From: a virus | Lineage: Duplodnaviria; Caudoviricetes | DNA: 56,889 nucleotides | Reading direction: 5' to 3' (one strand) | Virus record (IMG/VR): IMGVR_UViG_3300005805_000108 | Coordinates: 1-56,889 of that record | Shown here: piece after piece, positions 5,536 through 47,277 of the stretch | Layout: every line of letters starts with the position of its first letter | Position numbering within the stretch: position 1 is the first letter of the stretch | Notes under the pieces: generated by a model | Told to the model about the DNA's origin: nothing | The model's database searches: none | The model's input: the letters and a program-made list of their open reading frames with translations, nothing else | Translations under genes and position numbers: made by a program

Positions 5536-6738
5536 TTACCATAATTCTATATTAAACTTATTAGCTAAGTCTTTCATATAAGGTAAAACATAAAACAAAT
5601 TTTGTTTTCTGTATAGATCTAATTGTTTAGTATATGTAAAAAATCTCACTACATCCTGATAATCGATACTTTTAGATTTTTCATAGGCACTTTCATAATT
5701 TTGCATTAAGTTTTGCCATGCATGAATCTTAGGATCGAGTTTTTGTTTTAGTAAATCAAGTTGCTTTTCAAGCACCATAGTGGGTGTTAATTCAAGATAG
5801 TTATTTCCTGTTACTGTAATAAACCAATAACCATATTGTACACCTATGTGTTGAAATCTAGTAATTAATGGCAGCATATTTTCAGCATTTAAATTTTGAT
5901 TTACAACAGATATTCCTAATTTAAGATTAGAGTATTGATTTTTATAGTCTATTGCTAACTTCATATTTTCATAGACTTTTTGAAAATTCCCAGGCCATCT
6001 TATATATTCGTAAACTGCATCAGTACCGTCTATACTTGCATTAACTTCAACTTTTTTAAATTTAGTCCAATATGCAAAAAACTTTTTAATATCTATATGC
6101 ATATTTGTATTATATTTTATATGAATTTGCCCTGCTCTATTTTGATCGATCAAAGTTCGTAATATTTTTTCATGAAACTCGTTAATTAAAGGCTCACCAC
6201 CTATAAAATATATATAGTTTAAGTTAGTGCATTTTGCAATTAAATCTAATATCTTTTTTTCTTCATTCTCACCAAAATCAATTAATCCTTTTTTACCTGA
6301 TGGATCATTGAAGATTCCTATATCTATTAAGTTTTTAGCCAATAAACTACTACTATACTTGTTGCACATTCTACAAGCTAAATTACATTTGTTACCCAAT
6401 GTAATATCTAAATATTCAATATCGTTAAAATCAATATGTTGATTTTTATAATATTCCACGTCTTTTACTCTATGCAAATTATTTAAAAGTTCTCTGTAAC
6501 TTGTCATTCCCTGATCTTCTAAATCCCAACACCTTTTGCATAGTTCTGACCTATCATCATTTATGAAATCCTGTCTTAATTTTTTAATATTTTCATGATT
6601 TATTATTTCATCAACTGATATATTTGTAATTTTTTTTCCAAAACCAGAATTGTATGCATTACAACAAGGTCTTAATTGACCTGTGGCAGAAAAACTTATA
6701 CTGTTAAATGGCAATACACAAAAATTTTTTAGAGTCAT
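5536..6738 (-). CDS. Radical SAM protein with N-terminal twitch-like Cys domain
   Basis: N-terminal FCVLPF...RPCC...CKRCW; CNLACRMC; GGEP; ASIDG; YEYIRWP. Confidence 0.9.
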   Translation of the reverse strand: MTLKNFCVLPFNSISFSATGQLRPCCNAYNSGFGKKITNISVDEIINHENIKKLRQDFINDDRSELCKRCWDLEDQGMTSYRELLNNLHRVKDVEYYKNQHIDFNDIEYLDITLGNKCNLACRMCNKYSSSLLAKNLIDIGIFNDPSGKKGLIDFGENEEKKILDLIAKCTNLNYIYFIGGEPLINEFHEKILRTLIDQNRAGQIHIKYNTNMHIDIKKFFAYWTKFKKVEVNASIDGTDAVYEYIRWPGNFQKVYENMKLAIDYKNQYSNLKLGISVVNQNLNAENMLPLITRFQHIGVQYGYWFITVTGNNYLELTPTMVLEKQLDLLKQKLDPKIHAWQNLMQNYESAYEKSKSIDYQDVVRFFTYTKQLDLYRKQNLFYVLPYMKDLANKFNIELW

Positions 6739-6746
6739 ATTTAAGG

Positions 6747-8099
6747 TTATTTGTTATAGATATCTTTACATAAATTATAAAAATCTCTGTATTCAGGAAA
6801 AGTCTGTAATAGATCGGTGCCTAATCTGCGATCATTTTCAGTAAAAAAAGAGTAAAAATCTCTTCTTCCCTGCATAATTTTTTCTTCGCTAATAGTATGT
6901 TCTTTCATATAATTAGTAAGACGTTTAAATTTTTCGTATTCTATACTGGTAAACCAATTCATATTTTCTTGAATAAAATTTAACGTTTTGTCCATATAGG
7001 GAATAAAGTCCGGGGTTAAGATTTTTATCATCCAGTGCGGTGGCTCTTTAAGATATGGAGTATCAAAAGATATTGCATGCTGACCTTTTAATTGACGCAA
7101 TTCAATTACTTTTTCTAATAGTTTTTGAAAATTAGTGACACAAAGTACATTAAATGTACACATAAGATTAACGGTTGCACCAGAGTCTATTACTGCTTTG
7201 ACATTTCTTTCCCAATGTTCGCAATTTAAACCTGTACGCATATATTCAGCTTGAGGGCCCCAGCTATCTATGCTAGTATAAAAATTAAATTGTTTAATTT
7301 TTTTAGTGGCTAATAAGTTGGAAACTCTTTCTAATAGTCGATCTACTTTAGCAAAACTTACTCCAAGATTACTATTAAGAGTAATTTGTAATTCCGGTGC
7401 AGGTTCATTTTCTAGTAGATCAAAAAACTGCATCGCTGCAGGATTCATTAAAGGTTCACCCCCTGTAATTCTTAGAGTATGAAGATCTTTTCTTAGCTCT
7501 GGCCACCATCGCCAAAACGCTTCGATATAAGGATTATTATCTTTAGGTCCATAATAACTACCTCTATCTAAAAATTCTATTCCGTATTGATTATAAGTTA
7601 AATCATAATTGCCATGCTTTTTAATTTCTTCTACCCATTGAGTGCTAGCTTGCGGGCAACAATAACCACATCTAAAATTACAACTATTACCAAAGCTAAC
7701 TTCTAAGTATTTTGGGTTAATATTTTGATCCCATGGTAACTTAGCTATTTTGTCAATTAAAGGCACACTATAGTTGCTACTACTATGAAACATACGATCA
7801 CTAAAATGTTCCCCTGGTAAATCTTCTATATTCCAACAATAATAGCATTCGTCGGGTCTTTGCCCTTCAAGCATTTTTTTCCGTTGTTCTTTTTTCCATG
7901 AGGTATTATGTAACGCCGCTGGATCTTTTTCTATTTCATCCAATTCTATATGATGTGGTCTAGGATGATAACAACTATGATTATCTCCTGTGTGAAGATA
8001 TAGAGTTTGATGCAACCATTTCATTGTACAGAAACTTGGACTTACACGATTTAACTTGTCCCTAACTACTTTAACATAGGTAATATGATTTTCATTCAT
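6747..8099 (-). CDS. Radical SAM protein with N-terminal twitch-like domain
   Basis: CTMKW...SCYHP...CYYCW; CNFRCGYC; TGGEP; SIDSWG. Confidence 0.9.
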   Translation of the reverse strand: MNENHITYVKVVRDKLNRVSPSFCTMKWLHQTLYLHTGDNHSCYHPRPHHIELDEIEKDPAALHNTSWKKEQRKKMLEGQRPDECYYCWNIEDLPGEHFSDRMFHSSSNYSVPLIDKIAKLPWDQNINPKYLEVSFGNSCNFRCGYCCPQASTQWVEEIKKHGNYDLTYNQYGIEFLDRGSYYGPKDNNPYIEAFWRWWPELRKDLHTLRITGGEPLMNPAAMQFFDLLENEPAPELQITLNSNLGVSFAKVDRLLERVSNLLATKKIKQFNFYTSIDSWGPQAEYMRTGLNCEHWERNVKAVIDSGATVNLMCTFNVLCVTNFQKLLEKVIELRQLKGQHAISFDTPYLKEPPHWMIKILTPDFIPYMDKTLNFIQENMNWFTSIEYEKFKRLTNYMKEHTISEEKIMQGRRDFYSFFTENDRRLGTDLLQTFPEYRDFYNLCKDIYNK

Positions 8100-42388: not shown

Positions 42389-43405
42389 ATGGGAAATCTA
42401 TTTAAACGTGCATTGGTATTAACCGATCTTCATTTTGGTTTAAAAAGTAATAGTCAGGTACACAATGATGACTGTGCTGCTTTCATTAAATGGGCAATAT
42501 CAGTAGCCAAGGCGCAAAACTGTGAAACCTGTTTTTGTCTAGGGGATTGGCATAATAATCGAGCCAGTATAAATATTCTTACACTAAACTATAGTTTAGA
42601 GGCATTAGAACAATTAAATGCAAACTTTACAAATGTTTACTTTATTCCTGGCAATCATGATCTTTATTATCGCGATCGCAGGGATGTTCAAAGTGTTTCC
42701 TGGGCAAAACACCTTTCAAATGTTAGGATATGCAATGATTGGTTTATTGATAGCAACGTTATCATTGCTCCTTGGCTAGTAGCAGACGATCATAAACGTA
42801 TCCCAAAAATGTCAGCCAAATACATGTTTGGTCATTTTGAACTACCACATTTTTACATGAATGCTATGGTGCAAATGCCTGATCATGGAGAAATTAAGCA
42901 TGAACATTTTCAGGGCATTGAACAGGTTTTTACTGGGCACTTTCATAAACGACAACAACGTAATAATATCACTTATATAGGTAACTGTTTTCCTCATAAC
43001 TATGCAGATGCTGGCGATGATCAACGAGGTGTAATGATATTAGAATGGGATAAACCCCCTGAATTTCATAGTTGGCCACACCAACCAACTTATCGAAATC
43101 TTAATCTCAGTGATTTACTGCATAATGCTGACAATATTCTTCGAGAAAAAATGCATGTCAGAGTAAGTTTAGATATCGATATCAGCTATGAAGAAGCAAA
43201 TTTTATTAAAGAAACATTTATCGAAAGCCATAAATTAAGAGAAATTACTCTAATGCCTTCGAAAAATCATGATCTCACACAATATGAAATTAAGGGCAAT
43301 ATAGAATTTGAAAGTGTAGATCAAATTGTAACTAATCAATTAACTGCTATTAGTTCAGAGCACTACGATAATAAACTTCTATTAGACATTTATAGGAATC
43401 TTTAA
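42389..43405 (+). CDS. gp47: Recombination endonuclease subunit gp47 (Mre11/SbcD-like)
   Basis: Metallophosphoesterase motifs DLHFG, GDW, GNHD, GHFE, GHFH. Confidence 0.93.
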   Translation: MGNLFKRALVLTDLHFGLKSNSQVHNDDCAAFIKWAISVAKAQNCETCFCLGDWHNNRASINILTLNYSLEALEQLNANFTNVYFIPGNHDLYYRDRRDVQSVSWAKHLSNVRICNDWFIDSNVIIAPWLVADDHKRIPKMSAKYMFGHFELPHFYMNAMVQMPDHGEIKHEHFQGIEQVFTGHFHKRQQRNNITYIGNCFPHNYADAGDDQRGVMILEWDKPPEFHSWPHQPTYRNLNLSDLLHNADNILREKMHVRVSLDIDISYEEANFIKETFIESHKLREITLMPSKNHDLTQYEIKGNIEFESVDQIVTNQLTAISSEHYDNKLLLDIYRNL

Positions 43406-43675
43406 TTGTTAAAACTAAAAACGCTATCAGTTAAAAATTTTATGAGTGTAGGTAATGCTACACAAGGTATAGATTTTGATCGTAATGATTTAACTCTTGT
43501 CTTAGGTGAAAACCTTGACTTAGGCGGCGATGACAACGGAAGTCGCAATGGCACAGGAAAGTGTGTTTGTATAAATACATTAGTAAAAGTAAGAAACACC
43601 ATAACTGGTGAAATTTACGAAACTACTGTAGGAGATTTATATAATGCCGCGCTGGAACAACAGTCTAGAAGATAA
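43406..43675 (+). CDS. gp46: gp46 (Rad50/SbcC-like ATPase) N-extein (52 aa) fused to split-intein N-fragment (37 aa)
   Basis: KNFMSVGN...NGTGK (Walker A, truncated) then CVCINTLV...TVGDLY intein block A starting at Cys 43562. Confidence 0.9.
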   Translation: MLKLKTLSVKNFMSVGNATQGIDFDRNDLTLVLGENLDLGGDDNGSRNGTGKCVCINTLVKVRNTITGEIYETTVGDLYNAALEQQSRR

Positions 43676-45094
43676 TTGCAAATTTGTTTTAGATAATATC
43701 ATTAAAAACATACACCCGATTATGCACCAAATAACATTATCAGATATAATTTCAGCTAATTTAGAAAATAATAAAAAAGTAATCGAACTATATATTAGAT
43801 CTAAATTAGGCATTACATCTACGTTATCCAGAAAAACAAAACAATACTGGATCTCTAGAGGGTGGAGCAACGATGAAGCATATATAAAATCGAAAGAAAA
43901 TACACAAAAAAATATCAAAAGCGTTTATAGTAGAGAATTTTGGTTAGAAAGAATTAATCCAACAACTGGAATTAATTATACAATTGACGAAGCAGATTTT
44001 GAAAGAAATAGTCGTCGTCCTATTAGAAAAGAGTATTGGATTCAGAAAGGATATACTGACCAAGAGGCAGAAACTCTAGCATTAGAATCTAAAAATAATA
44101 ATAATAAACTAGGAGCAAAATCATCATCTACTTCTATTGTTCGAAATGTTACATCGAAAAGATGCACAGAATATTATACTGTTCGAGGGTATTCTATAGA
44201 AGAGGCTAAAATTCTTGTTTCCAACGGGCAGAAATATTTTTCTAAAGAAATTTGTATTAAAAAGTACGGAGAAAAGAAAGGGTTAAAAGTTTGGCAAGAT
44301 AGACAAAATAGATGGCAAAATACATTAGCCGCTAAACCCGACGAAGAAAAGTTTAGGATTAATAGATTAAAATTGTCAAAAGGAATAACTGTTTCAAAAG
44401 CAGAAAAAATTATTTTTGAACAAATTAAAAATATATTTCCAACAGTCAAACATCAGTTTACACTGTCCGATGAATCAAATAAAAAACAATATGTTTATGA
44501 TATTAATATTGACAAAAAAATTATAGAATACAATGGCGACTTTTGGCACTCAAACCCTTCTAAATATTCTTCAGATTTTACAAATCCAAGAACAAAACTA
44601 AAAGCACTTGACAAATGGGCAATCGACGCGGCTAAAATTAAATACGCAGAATCCCAAGGATATAAAGTATTAGTAGTTTGGGAATCAGATTTTAAACTAA
44701 ACAAAGAAAAAGTTATTAAAGAATGCATACAATTTCTAACACAGTAACAAGAAAATTCATCAACAGTATAGATCTATCTAATCTAGAAATAGAAACAGAT
44801 AATGGATGGCAACCTATAAGTGCAATTCATAAAACAGTCCCTTACAATGTTTGGTATATTGAAACCATCAATGGCTTGGTTTTAGAATGCGCTGACGATC
44901 ATATTGTTTTTGACGAAAATTTTAACGAAATATTTGTTAAAAATATTAAAAAAAATATTACAAAAATCTTAACAAAGAATGGAGCAGAATTAGTTATTAG
45001 TGTAGAGAAAAAGAATAGACAAGAAAATATGTACGATGTTACAGTAGATCATCCAACACATAGATTCTACACCAATGACATAATTTCACATAAT
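43562..45094 (+). mobile_element. Split intein plus intervening free-standing endonuclease gene (fractured-gene cassette)
   Basis: IntN 43562-43672, endonuclease 43644-44747, IntC 44723-45094; removal rejoins GTGK|TT. Confidence 0.88.
43644..44747 (+). CDS. Putative homing endonuclease, Vsr-like / PD-(D/E)xK catalytic domain
   Basis: C-terminal SKAE...YVYDI...IIEYNGDFWH...GYKVLVVWESD; N-terminal [YF]W..[RK]G[YW][ST]..EA repeats; AGGAGA RBS at 43630-43635. Confidence 0.8.
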   Translation: MPRWNNSLEDNCKFVLDNIIKNIHPIMHQITLSDIISANLENNKKVIELYIRSKLGITSTLSRKTKQYWISRGWSNDEAYIKSKENTQKNIKSVYSREFWLERINPTTGINYTIDEADFERNSRRPIRKEYWIQKGYTDQEAETLALESKNNNNKLGAKSSSTSIVRNVTSKRCTEYYTVRGYSIEEAKILVSNGQKYFSKEICIKKYGEKKGLKVWQDRQNRWQNTLAAKPDEEKFRINRLKLSKGITVSKAEKIIFEQIKNIFPTVKHQFTLSDESNKKQYVYDINIDKKIIEYNGDFWHSNPSKYSSDFTNPRTKLKALDKWAIDAAKIKYAESQGYKVLVVWESDFKLNKEKVIKECIQFLTQ

Positions 45095-46711
45095 ACTACT
45101 ATTGCCAATGCACTTAGTTATGCCCTATATGGCCAGGCTCTTACTAATATTAAGCGTGATAATCTAATAAATAAAACCAATGGCAAAAACATGTTGGTAT
45201 GCTTAGATTTTGAAATTAGCGGCGAACACTACAGAATCGAACGTGGGCGAAAACCCAATGTTTTGAAATTCTATGTTAATAATCAAGAACAGGAAAGTAA
45301 AGATGATAACAGTCAGGGTGATAGCAGAGAAACTCAGCGTGATATAGAAAAACTGGTAAATCTGACACATGATATGTTCAAACATATTGTGGCACTTAAT
45401 ACCTATACCGAACCATTTTTAAGTTTGAAAGCACAGGATCAAAGAACCCTTATCGAACAACTACTAGGTATCACCCTGCTAAGTGAAAAAGCCGAGGGGC
45501 TCAAAGAACAGAATCGAATCACAAAAGAAGCTATTACCACAGAAGAATTTAGAATCAAAAGCGTAATCGACAGTAATGATCGGATACGTGAACAGATTAA
45601 AAATTTAGAAAAACGACAAACGTTATGGCAACGTAAGCGACAAGAAGACATTCAAGCGTTGCAAACAGCCTACGATAATCTTGCACAGTTAGATATCGAG
45701 CAAGAATTACAAAATCATAAAGAGCTTGCAATACATAAACAAAAATCTGAAGCAATAGTTAATCTAAGCAGTCGTGTTAAAATAGCGAAAAAAGAATATG
45801 ACAGAGAAATAGTAACTTATAATACTCTGTGTAAAGATGTAGAAAGTTTGATTAACCATGTTTGTCCTAGCTGCAATCAAAAATTTCATAGTAAAAAACA
45901 AAAAGAGACATTGGAACTTAAGATTAAACAACGAGATGAATCTAATGTTTTAGTAGAAAAGTTATTAGAAACTTATAATAATTTAATCAATGAACTCAAG
46001 CAGTTAGATACATTAGGCGAAAAACCGACAACATTTTACGAATTAGAATCTGATGCGTTCGAGCATAGAAGCAGTATGGCAAACTTACTAACAAAGATTT
46101 CTGACAAGCAGGAAGAAGCAGATCCTTATTATGAACAAATACAGGAAATGAAAACCACTGCACTATTAGAAATAAGCTATGATACTATAAATGAACTAAC
46201 AAAAATTCGAGAACATCAGGAATTTTTATTAAAATTGTTAACAAACAAAGACAGTTTTATACGTAAAAAAATTATTGATCAAAATTTAAACTACTTAAAT
46301 GCACGATTACAAACCTATCTCGAAAGAATTGGATTACCACATACAGTAAAATTTCAAAATGATCTTACTGTAAATATTGAAGAGTTAGGTAGAGAGTTAG
46401 ATTTTGATAATCTAAGTAGAGGCGAACGTAATAGATTAATTCTCAGTTTAAGTTGGGCTTTTCGGGATGTTTGGGAAAGTTTATATACTCCGATTAATCT
46501 GTTGTTTATCGATGAGGTTGTAGATAGTGGTATGGATAGTTCAGGAGTTGAAAATAGTCTAGCGATCTTGAAAAAAATGAGTAGAGAGACTCATAAAAGT
46601 GTATGGTTAGTCAGCCATAAGGATGAACTAGCGGGACGAGTAAACAATATTTTGACTGTAATAAAAGAAAATGGATTTACCAGTTATGCAACTGATACAC
46701 AGATTAATTAA
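44723..46711 (+). CDS. gp46: Split-intein C-fragment (124 aa) fused to gp46 C-extein (538 aa)
   Basis: LECADDH (block B His), MYDVTV (block F), FYTNDIISHN|T (block G, +1 Thr); then TTIANALSYALYG, zinc hook CPSC, LSRGE signature, LLFIDE Walker B, VSH. Confidence 0.92.
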   Translation: MHTISNTVTRKFINSIDLSNLEIETDNGWQPISAIHKTVPYNVWYIETINGLVLECADDHIVFDENFNEIFVKNIKKNITKILTKNGAELVISVEKKNRQENMYDVTVDHPTHRFYTNDIISHNTTIANALSYALYGQALTNIKRDNLINKTNGKNMLVCLDFEISGEHYRIERGRKPNVLKFYVNNQEQESKDDNSQGDSRETQRDIEKLVNLTHDMFKHIVALNTYTEPFLSLKAQDQRTLIEQLLGITLLSEKAEGLKEQNRITKEAITTEEFRIKSVIDSNDRIREQIKNLEKRQTLWQRKRQEDIQALQTAYDNLAQLDIEQELQNHKELAIHKQKSEAIVNLSSRVKIAKKEYDREIVTYNTLCKDVESLINHVCPSCNQKFHSKKQKETLELKIKQRDESNVLVEKLLETYNNLINELKQLDTLGEKPTTFYELESDAFEHRSSMANLLTKISDKQEEADPYYEQIQEMKTTALLEISYDTINELTKIREHQEFLLKLLTNKDSFIRKKIIDQNLNYLNARLQTYLERIGLPHTVKFQNDLTVNIEELGRELDFDNLSRGERNRLILSLSWAFRDVWESLYTPINLLFIDEVVDSGMDSSGVENSLAILKKMSRETHKSVWLVSHKDELAGRVNNILTVIKENGFTSYATDTQIN

Positions 46712-46755
46712 ACTAAAATATTTGGATTATTTCTAAGACAACTATATATACAAGT

Positions 46756-47277
46756 ATGACTAGCCCTCAAAAAGCCAAAGGTGGCAGTTTCGAACGTGAA
46801 ATTGCACGATTTCTATCTGAACAATATAATGAAAGTTTCATTAGAGCGCCAGGTAGTGGTGCCTATGTGGGCGGATCAAACAATGCAAGAAAACAGATTT
46901 TACATGATAATCAAATCAGATCATTCAAAGGCGATATTGTACCAGGACAAAGTTTTGGTAGATTAAATGCAGAATGTAAAAGTTATAAAGATTTTCCATT
47001 TCATCAACTATTTCAAGGCTCAATAAAATTGTTAGATTCATGGATCGATCAATGTATGGATGTAGCTGACGAAGGCGATTTCAGCATTTTATTCATGAAA
47101 TTCAACAGAAAAGGCACTTACACAGCAATAAAACTCAGTGACCCACACAACTTAAATTTAACCAATCATATTATATATAACTCAAAAAATCATGGCTCTT
47201 GGGCATTCATGGCACTAGACACATTTTTTCAACTTAATCACGAACAATTTCAAATTCTTTGTAATAAACAGGCATAG
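46756..47277 (+). CDS. Holliday junction resolvase-like (Hjc-type PD-(D/E)xK) nuclease
   Basis: KAKGGSFERE, R.PGSGA, GDI, ECK motifs. Confidence 0.75.
   Translation: MTSPQKAKGGSFEREIARFLSEQYNESFIRAPGSGAYVGGSNNARKQILHDNQIRSFKGDIVPGQSFGRLNAECKSYKDFPFHQLFQGSIKLLDSWIDQCMDVADEGDFSILFMKFNRKGTYTAIKLSDPHNLNLTNHIIYNSKNHGSWAFMALDTFFQLNHEQFQILCNKQA

Follow-up and report, generated by a model that had tools for sequence, protein, structure and literature searches.

The window analysed here is the complete 56,889-nucleotide (56.9-kb) IMG/VR virus record IMGVR_UViG_3300005805_000108, an estimated ~16% of the genome of an uncultured freshwater giant phage. On the evidence of its sequence, the gene for gp46, a Rad50/SbcC-type recombination ATPase, is 'fractured' in this window within Walker A, after the Lys codon and before the Thr codon. 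The explanation held with high confidence is that an atypically split intein, with a Vsr-like endonuclease gene between its two halves, interrupts gp46 and that the ATPase is restored by predicted protein trans-splicing. Sequence and comparison establish the anatomy of the locus, its conservation, the presence/absence polymorphism of the insert and the likeness of its fold to known inteins; splicing of the gp46 halves is predicted as very likely. The gp46 gene with a split intein and a homing endonuclease is real, conserved and widespread.

The fractured gp46 gene and its intein halves

The first open reading frame (ORF) of the locus (43406-43675, plus strand, 89 residues) encodes gp46 as far as GDDNGSRNGTGK and then continues as CVCINTLV...VGDLYNAALEQQSRR for 37 residues before a stop codon. 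The third ORF (44723-46711, plus strand, 662 residues) opens with a 124-residue intein C-part, which is followed directly by TTIANAL and the rest of gp46. Joined by script, the two extein segments yield a 590-residue product (52 + 538) that aligns colinearly, through the GTGK-TT junction, with uninterrupted gp46 from Pseudomonas phage PA5oct and from an IMG/VR relative (L054). The joined protein contains the Walker A, coiled coil, CxxC zinc hook, signature, Walker B and H-loop elements of the gp46 family, and its gene adjoins one for gp47/SbcD.

An earlier note on this DNA had read gp46 as broken within Walker A by a split intein whose N-part is short and whose C-part is long. This reading is supported, and with it the view that a working ATPase would depend on protein trans-splicing. 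Its description of the first ORF (gp46 to NGTGK, 37 residues, stop), of the downstream ORF (124 residues with LECADDH, MYDVTV and ISHN, then TTIANAL) and of a joined 590-residue gp46 with P-loop, zinc hook, signature and Walker B agrees with the ORF listing, the scripted join and the intact homologues. The intein itself is borne out by invariant residues, purifying selection, a profile search of the Protein Data Bank (PDB) and co-folding. The layout given in the earlier note was incomplete, as it missed the 367-residue Vsr-like endonuclease ORF between the halves. With this gene present, the whole arrangement is one that had already been described as a 'fractured gene' in 2009 (PMC2677866).

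Two scans of IMG/VR yielded 106 loci, which were compared with five parts of the locus by tblastn. In 66 of these (L043-L108) gp46 is intact, with the C-extein match in frame at the codon next to the N-extein match; all 66 join the same residues, and the insert is thereby delimited to the residue. A further 26 loci (L003-L013, L015, L029-L042) carry a split gp46, and in the other 14 (L014, L016-L028) the intein C-part belongs to a different gene or there is only a short match. Among cultured phages, gp46 homology begins at residue 125 of the downstream gp46 ORF in 38 of the 40 matches listed, and the closest cultured gp46 is that of the jumbo Pseudomonas phage PA5oct (47.5% identity). A match from residue 105 in Escherichia phage EJP2 was rejected as a chance extension without an intein; the gp46 of that phage is an uninterrupted 714 residues. 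Megablast of 43000-47000 against cultured phages gave no match, and Pfam searches of the gp46 fragments returned weak AAA_23 and chance coiled-coil matches.

Fourteen distinct alleles were obtained from the window together with 21 of the 26 split loci; left out were L007, with several frame changes, L030, which is truncated by its contig end, and L031-L033, which duplicate the contigs of L006, L011 and L005. Every allele has Cys1 directly after NGTGK, a stop after 33-43 residues, and an ATG-started C-part of 123-124 residues that ends in SHN and is followed by Thr+1. Residues C1, N5 and T6 and the TGE motif of the N-part are invariant in 14/14 alleles, as are the block B His (H60 of the C-part) and SHN with Thr+1. 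The endonuclease gene is present in 12 of the 14. The remaining two, L015 and L037, are split without it; between their halves lie a stop, a short spacer that includes a ribosome-binding site, and an ATG. This indicates that the split intein is maintained in its own right.

Median ratios of non-synonymous to synonymous divergence (pN/pS), calculated over 91 pairs with a purpose-written Nei–Gojobori script, were 0.44 and 0.35 for the intein N- and C-parts, respectively, and 0.26 and 0.39 for the two exteins, with synonymous sites near saturation in most pairs. By this sequence measure, both intein halves are under purifying selection. Furthermore, a C-part query of a large protein collection retrieved 164 cluster representatives of 290 candidates, most of them 650-670 residues long. 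Those with names are called 'DNA repair exonuclease SbcCD ATPase subunit' or, in a single case, 'hypothetical protein', and none is named an intein. Two loci carry frame changes: L007 has several across its intein N-part and endonuclease ORF (160-1850), and L029 has one in its C-extein after ~169-200 residues (5690-7199). These are either decaying copies or sequencing errors.

The halves have the proportions of an atypical split, the 37-residue N-part carrying block A only and the 124-residue C-part carrying blocks B, F and G. As a single sequence, the C-part weakly matched the NrdJ-1, VidaL and gp41-1 inteins. A profile built from the 14 C-parts and run against the PDB matched VidaL (8e-9), gp41-1 (2e-6), CatC (6.9e-5), NrdJ-1 (7e-4) and PolB16 (6e-3), where CatC is the C-part of Cat, a consensus atypical intein of the terminase large subunit (TerL). 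Foldseek searches with an AlphaFold model of the C-part returned three matches with E ≤ 0.001; these, like nearly all of the matches listed, are to inteins or further HINT domains. Among solved structures, VidaL is the best relative both by profile and by Foldseek.

Co-folding of the N-part with the C-part, each supplied with a few extein residues as a 14-row alignment, scored 0.83 (three runs) compared with 0.02 for the best of three controls. The mark applied to such scores is reached by 58 of 80 solved complexes and by 2 of 110 mismatched pairs. The runs share at least 75% of their contacts, the partner predicted local distance difference test (pLDDT) score is at least 79, and the Cys1 region is placed against blocks B, F and G. 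Contact residues 31-32, 34-35, 38-39 and 42 of the N-part are spaced i, i+3/4, a helical pattern read from the contacts of the complex. From this spacing, the GDLYNAALEQ segment before the stop and the register of the CatC match, it appears that the split falls after the first helix (the S2 position). The modelling supports, in silico, the view that the two halves together would complete a HINT fold.

Several observations weigh against this interpretation. Blocks B, F and G lie where the earlier note had located them, but the Thr usual in block B (TxxH) is Ala in 14/14 alleles; VidaL likewise aligns with Ala at this position. At E ≤ 0.1, Pfam recognises neither an intein nor a Hint family in the two fragments. 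The AlphaFold model of the C-part alone has a pLDDT of 69, and its template modelling (TM) scores against inteins reach only ~0.35. Because split inteins have solved structures, the co-folding result may show likeness rather than binding of this particular pair. The C-part ORF begins within the endonuclease ORF behind a weak ribosome-binding site (AAAGAA), which leaves its level of translation in doubt. Finally, the loci were drawn by intein and N-fragment queries, so the split-to-intact ratio and the tree counts given below come from a biased sample.

The locus can also be followed in sequencing runs. The stretch 43300-45200 is nearly identical in 20 runs from eight studies of lake, freshwater, estuary and drinking water; none of the 24 listed runs is on record as RNA, and they carry no weight either way on expression. 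Contigs from four runs in four studies tile 43200-46800, and those of runs X1 (43302-43745, 43716-44725 and 44696-45474) and X2 (43253-43890 and 44357-45329) bridge the junctions of both halves. The gp46 layout is not an assembly artefact.

Two further alleles were recovered from these data. A contig of run X3 joins 43557 to 45100 (depth 10.4, side of 32 letters, nine other letters between) and represents an intein-less allele; by script it reads uninterrupted and in frame as GSRNGTGK-TV-IANAL, joined exactly at the predicted intein bounds. An endonuclease-deleted allele joins 43764 to 44675 in runs of two studies, X1 (depth 9.96) and X3 (depth 12.1), and agrees with the arrangement in L015 and L037. 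Contig depths are means and were not used for allele frequencies. Joints at 43343->44087, 44104->44938/44939 and 45414->46451 were set aside, as their sides of 21-25 letters fall below the stated reliability.

The endonuclease gene and putative control elements

The endonuclease ORF lies in a different frame from the N-part ORF and overlaps the first ORF by 32 nucleotides and the third by 25 (44723-44747); its KCIQFL tail and the MHTIS head of the C-part are conserved across alleles. The protein's N-terminal part is helical, contains repeated YW..RGW/Y motifs and belongs to no named family; a Vsr-like catalytic domain bearing the motif E..GDFWH...WE makes up the C-terminal part. In an alignment of 12 sequences, residues E295, G298, W301 and H302 and the WE pair are invariant, and D299 is nearly so. 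An AlphaFold model (pLDDT 79.7) matched Vsr (1cw0; TM by target 0.55) and the catalytic domain of I-Bth0305I (3r3p, chain 3r3p_B; 0.70) by Foldseek, with a probability of 1.00 for both and weak E-values of ~0.1; a PDB search with the sequence found nothing relevant. Taken together, motif and model point to a Vsr-like homing endonuclease, which is predicted to cleave the intein-less allele. In L006 (2919-4022) the cassette is otherwise intact, but the endonuclease has GNFWH where GDFWH is conserved elsewhere, and it may be inactivated. Within the 56.9-kb record there is no second copy of the intein or the endonuclease.

The gp46 locus lies downstream of genes for gp55, a late sigma factor, and the gp47/SbcD-like protein. 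A T4-type late-promoter consensus, TATAAATA, coincides with intein block A codons. Across both strands of the window this box occurs only six times, against an expectation of 16.2 +/- 3.8, and none of 100 shuffles had fewer than six copies. Such rarity is as expected if the box is a functional late promoter in a gp55-encoding phage and is avoided elsewhere. The exact box is found in 7 of the 14 alleles; its ATAAATA core is found in 12/12 endonuclease-bearing and 0/2 endonuclease-less alleles. The box may drive the endonuclease gene as a late promoter.

In a predicted RNA fold of 43562-43666 (-23.7 kcal/mol, z -2.96), the box pairs with bases at the endonuclease start and immediately ahead of it; one of 200 shuffles was as good. 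Covariation in the stem is weak (2 of 20 pairs), and both arms are coding. Correspondingly, synonymous divergence from the window in the intein N-part (43562-43672) is low, with pS of 0.25-0.63 as against mostly 0.62-1.0 in the exteins and C-part. This fits a double use of the N-part DNA, in which the promoter-like box, the predicted stem and the ribosome-binding site and start of the endonuclease gene also lie.

Directly 3' of gp46, the stretch 46756-47277 (plus strand) encodes a putative Holliday-junction resolvase of 173 residues (PDDEXK_15/RusA-like; Pfam 3.1e-23, PHROG 244 2.4e-17), so that recombination genes are clustered here. Features of the locus, and the homologous inteins discussed below, are collected in Table 1.

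Table 1. Features of the split gp46 locus in the window, and homologous inteins of other genes
Feature	Position or locus	Strand	Basis
gp47/SbcD-Mre11-like nuclease subunit	42389..43405	+	Pfam Metallophos 2e-07; PHROG 100 SbcD-like 4.7e-61
gp46 N-extein, 52 residues, TTG start, ends with first half of Walker A (NGTGK)	43406..43561	+	PHROG 77 SbcC-like 6.4e-08
Whole putatively mobile cassette (intein N-part, endonuclease gene, intein C-part), 1533 nucleotides	43562..45094	+	bounds from intein-less allele
Intein N-part, 37 residues (CVCINT... block A, strand, helix GDLYNAALEQ) and stop codon	43562..43675	+	14-allele alignment; co-fold contacts
TATAAATA, T4-type late-promoter consensus in block A codons (C-I-N-T), 67 nucleotides 5' of endonuclease ATG	43570..43577	+	motif match
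GGAG, ribosome-binding site of endonuclease gene, 9 nucleotides 5' of ATG, within intein-helix codons	43631..43634	+	sequence reading
Free-standing homing endonuclease gene (predicted), 367 residues	43644..44747	+	PHROG 22677 2.1e-20; weak Pfam DUF559, MTES_1575
Stretch missing in endonuclease-deleted variant, 910 nucleotides, both intein ORFs whole	43765..44674	+	contig joints; letters between not known
Intein C-part, 124 residues: block B CADDH, block F ENMYDVTV, block G HRFYTNDIISHN	44723..45094	+	alignment, PDB profile, Foldseek, co-fold
gp46 C-extein, 538 residues and stop, starts TTIANAL (Walker A remainder), coiled coil	45095..46711	+	PHROG 77 1.6e-81, residues 125-659
Zinc hook CPSC of gp46	45863-45874	+	
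Signature LSRGE of gp46	46412-46426	+	
Walker B LLFIDE of gp46	46499-46516	+	
H-loop VSHK of gp46	46610-46621	+	
Homologous atypically split inteins at GK^[S/T] of Walker A, terminase	L014, L016, L017/L018, L019, L024, L025, L027		
Homologous atypically split inteins at GK^[S/T] of Walker A, DnaB-like helicase	L020-L023		
Homologous atypically split intein at GK^[S/T] of Walker A, ClpB-like	L026		

Predicted trans-splicing and alternative explanations

In the proposed mechanism, the locus would be translated into two polypeptides, the first consisting of the 52-residue extein and the intein N-part and the second of the intein C-part and the 538-residue extein. The short N-part, two strands and a helix, would dock on the C-part and complete the HINT fold, a step that has support in silico. 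Splicing would then follow the class 1 route: formation of a thioester at Cys1, attack by Thr+1, cyclisation of Asn124 and an O-to-N shift that leaves GTGK-TTIANAL. With its P-loop restored, the 590-residue gp46 would work with gp47. The endonuclease, probably expressed late from the TATAAATA box in the intein codons, would spread the element by cutting intein-less gp46 alleles in co-infection, after which repair would copy the cassette in (homing).

The intein halves might instead be non-covalent interaction domains only, so that gp46 would work as two chains without splicing, as the fragmented NrdA does in phage Aeh1. For a gene product fragmented by a homing endonuclease, assembly without covalent bonds is documented (PMC3045599), co-folding speaks for association and not for chemistry, and the block B Thr is substituted. 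However, the residues that splicing would use (Cys1, the block B His, the terminal His-Asn and Thr+1) are invariant across 14 alleles that differ by 30-40% elsewhere. From P-loop structure, moreover, an unspliced domain of 161 residues between the Lys and Thr of the P-loop should abolish ATP binding, and a two-chain gp46 is judged improbable. A decaying pseudogene, in which insertion of the endonuclease gene broke gp46 and the phages either manage without it or use a host enzyme, is quite improbable. The damage in the C-extein of L029 and in the N-part and endonuclease of L007 would suit such decay, and sequencing errors would account for it equally well, but across the 91 pairs the two exteins and the two intein halves all have pN/pS far below 1. 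Full-length frames are open in all 14 distinct alleles, 164 cluster representatives exist, and the gp47 gene next door is intact.

Removal of the 1.5 kb as RNA, by a group I or II intron that carries the endonuclease gene beside fortuitous intein motifs, would be in line with the occurrence of Vsr-like endonucleases in group I introns as well (PMC2677866; PMC3239194). Against such an intron, a search of 43000-45500 with Rfam gave no intron match at E ≤ 1, the outer parts of the insert code for a HINT domain that is conserved and under purifying selection, and the bounds fall exactly at Cys1 and at Asn-Thr; an RNA intron is considered very improbable. The window is a metagenome contig, as an assembly artefact or a chimera of two phages would require, but independent contigs from four runs in four studies cover all junctions and the same architecture recurs in 26 IMG/VR loci from many samples, which makes this explanation extremely improbable. 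Protein trans-splicing of a gp46 fractured by a split intein accounts best for the locus.

Related inteins and known systems

Homologues of the C-part (43-61% identity) head the downstream fragments of T4-type terminases (Terminase_6N/6C), DnaB-like helicases (DnaB_C) and a ClpB-like ATPase (AAA_2 with ClpB_D2-small) in uncultured phages. In the corresponding upstream fragments, GK is the last extein sequence before Cys and a short N-part, and the halves usually enclose a Vsr-like ORF; the L017 terminase has a split intein without an endonuclease gene. In L017 (4775-5065) and L018 (868-1158) a second, weaker C-part match (32%) occurs ~150 residues further on, after ...RGMS|CVTGDT, which suggests a second intein in this terminase. 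Among cultured phages the C-part matches 320 records, and all functional annotations in the 30 listed are terminase large subunit. Outside gp46, the nearest relatives are inteins of TerL, inserted at an identical place in the P-loop, with C-parts 52-61% identical in the IMG/VR TerL alleles, and the likening of this intein to the atypically split terminase inteins in the earlier note was apt.

In the C-part tree, a clade of TerL and helicase inteins (support 96/98) lies within an unresolved set of gp46 inteins, and the gp46 inteins are not resolved as one clade. A FastTree phylogeny of 71 distinct C-exteins (14 with the intein and 57 without, a biased sample) implies seven changes of presence, at least six of them forced by well-supported branches, and groups the window with intein-less relatives (support 99). 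This patchy distribution on the host-gene tree fits a mobile element, with repeated loss as an alternative. The tree of the endonuclease catalytic domain (n=15), built to compare the descent of endonuclease and intein across host genes, has long branches and 8 of 12 forks open; the motif filter used had recovered three of the eight non-gp46 endonuclease ORFs.

A tentative and, on balance, doubtful proposal is that the three-part cassette is a single mobile unit that hops between the GK^S/T Walker A codons of unrelated P-loop ATPase genes in large phages. Ectopic homing would explain the multi-gene pattern if the endonuclease recognises P-loop-coding DNA. T4-type homing relies on the gp46/47 nuclease complex for end resection; if the hopping proposal is true, the element sits in the very complex on which such homing depends. 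The relatives in three other ATPase families make movement of the intein between P-loops directly testable. The full-cassette, endonuclease-deleted and intein-less alleles in public freshwater and estuary runs would represent a homing cycle in progress.

With gp46, a Rad50/SbcC-type recombination ATPase joins the hosts of naturally split inteins, and the insertion site GK^T, termed the 'classic' P-loop site by Kelley (2016), is in use in this family too. In the earlier note, this host gene was not known to have been described for an atypical split. A literature search likewise found no paper on a split intein in gp46, Rad50 or SbcC, the supplements of Dassa et al. (2009) and Novikova (2015) and some surveys of atypical splits being outside the search. 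The host gene thus appears to be undescribed for split inteins, whereas the type of element has been known since 2009. The value for protein ligation put forward in the earlier note holds in part: the intein is an atypical Cys1/Thr+1 split with a short N-part, but at 37 residues this part stands at the long end of the known 15-37-residue range (PMC13014065), so its value as a tool is modest. A practical gain would depend on kinetics and orthogonality, as the N-part is no shorter than those of existing tools. The 14 distinct alleles and 164 cluster representatives offer natural diversity of such a Cys1/Thr+1 intein.

The closest precedent for the locus as a whole is the set of 'fractured genes' reported by Dassa, London, Stoddard, Schueler-Furman and Pietrokovski (2009; PMC2677866). 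Their hosts are gp41, IMPDH, DnaE, NrdA, NrdJ, ligase, terminase and one unknown gene, and gp46, Rad50 and SbcC are not mentioned in the text of that paper. Both there and here, a conserved enzyme gene is split by an intein whose halves enclose a free-standing Vsr-like endonuclease gene on the same strand; the Vsr-like family occurs in half of their fractured genes. The 3' end of the endonuclease gene overlaps the start of the C-part ORF by 25 nucleotides here and by 6-69 bp in their set. A TATAAATA box with a hairpin, here a predicted stem with weak covariation, precedes the endonuclease start in both and, citing work on phage Aeh1, Dassa et al. describe how pairing of the late-promoter box in a hairpin holds back endonuclease translation. 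Alleles without the endonuclease are likewise common to both: gp41-7 in their set, and L015, L037 and the deletion joint here. The two systems differ in that 27-51 non-coding bases precede the endonuclease gene in theirs, whereas the gene starts 32 nucleotides inside the N-part ORF here. Furthermore, all but one of their inteins are canonically split, with N-parts of 88-105 residues, unlike the atypically split intein of the window; the sole exception is a terminase (GOS TerL) with a C-part of 122 residues.

The endonuclease shares the E..GD.WH motif of its C-terminal domain with I-Bth0305I and other Vsr-like (EDxHD) endonucleases, and differs from I-Bth0305I in its long helical N-terminal region without a named family. 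An intein at exactly the same GK^TT site of gp46 is found in Salicola phage SCTP-2, whose gene 539 (L109:2352-5117) encodes a 921-residue 'hypothetical protein' next to a gp47 homologue. This protein is a gp46 with a contiguous insert of 331 residues that ends in THN|TT and whose N-terminal part matches the gp41-1 intein (3.8e-7); Pfam does not recognise the insert. Unlike the intein of the window, to which it is only distantly related, the SCTP-2 intein is in one piece and has Ala at position 1.

Known atypical splits (AceL TerL, GOS TerL, VidaL and PolB16) have N-parts of 15-37 residues (PMC13014065). VidaL (PDB 6vgv) and the PolB16 intein OarG (PDB 8cpn) are both naturally atypically split, and VidaL shares the CA..H form of block B with the window; however, their splits come earlier, immediately behind the second strand, and leave N-parts of 16 and 15 residues, respectively (PMC13014065). 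The TerL inteins AceL, GOS and Cat (PDB 6dsl) combine a short N-part of 25-37 residues with a long C-part (PMC13014065), as does the 37/124 intein of the window, where the likeness to AceL and GOS was judged via Cat, the IMG/VR TerL alleles and published descriptions. By sequence and by reading of the co-fold contacts, the window's intein would share their S2-type split after the first helix. It also shares their insertion at GK^[S/T] of Walker A, and CatC is matched in the same register. The host is an SMC/Rad50-type ATPase here and a terminase there, and the window's intein pairs Cys1 with Thr+1, whereas GOS TerL is reported to have Ser1 with Cys+1 (PMC10189870). The gp46 split intein is related to, and distinct from, the TerL inteins and VidaL that are already used for ligation.

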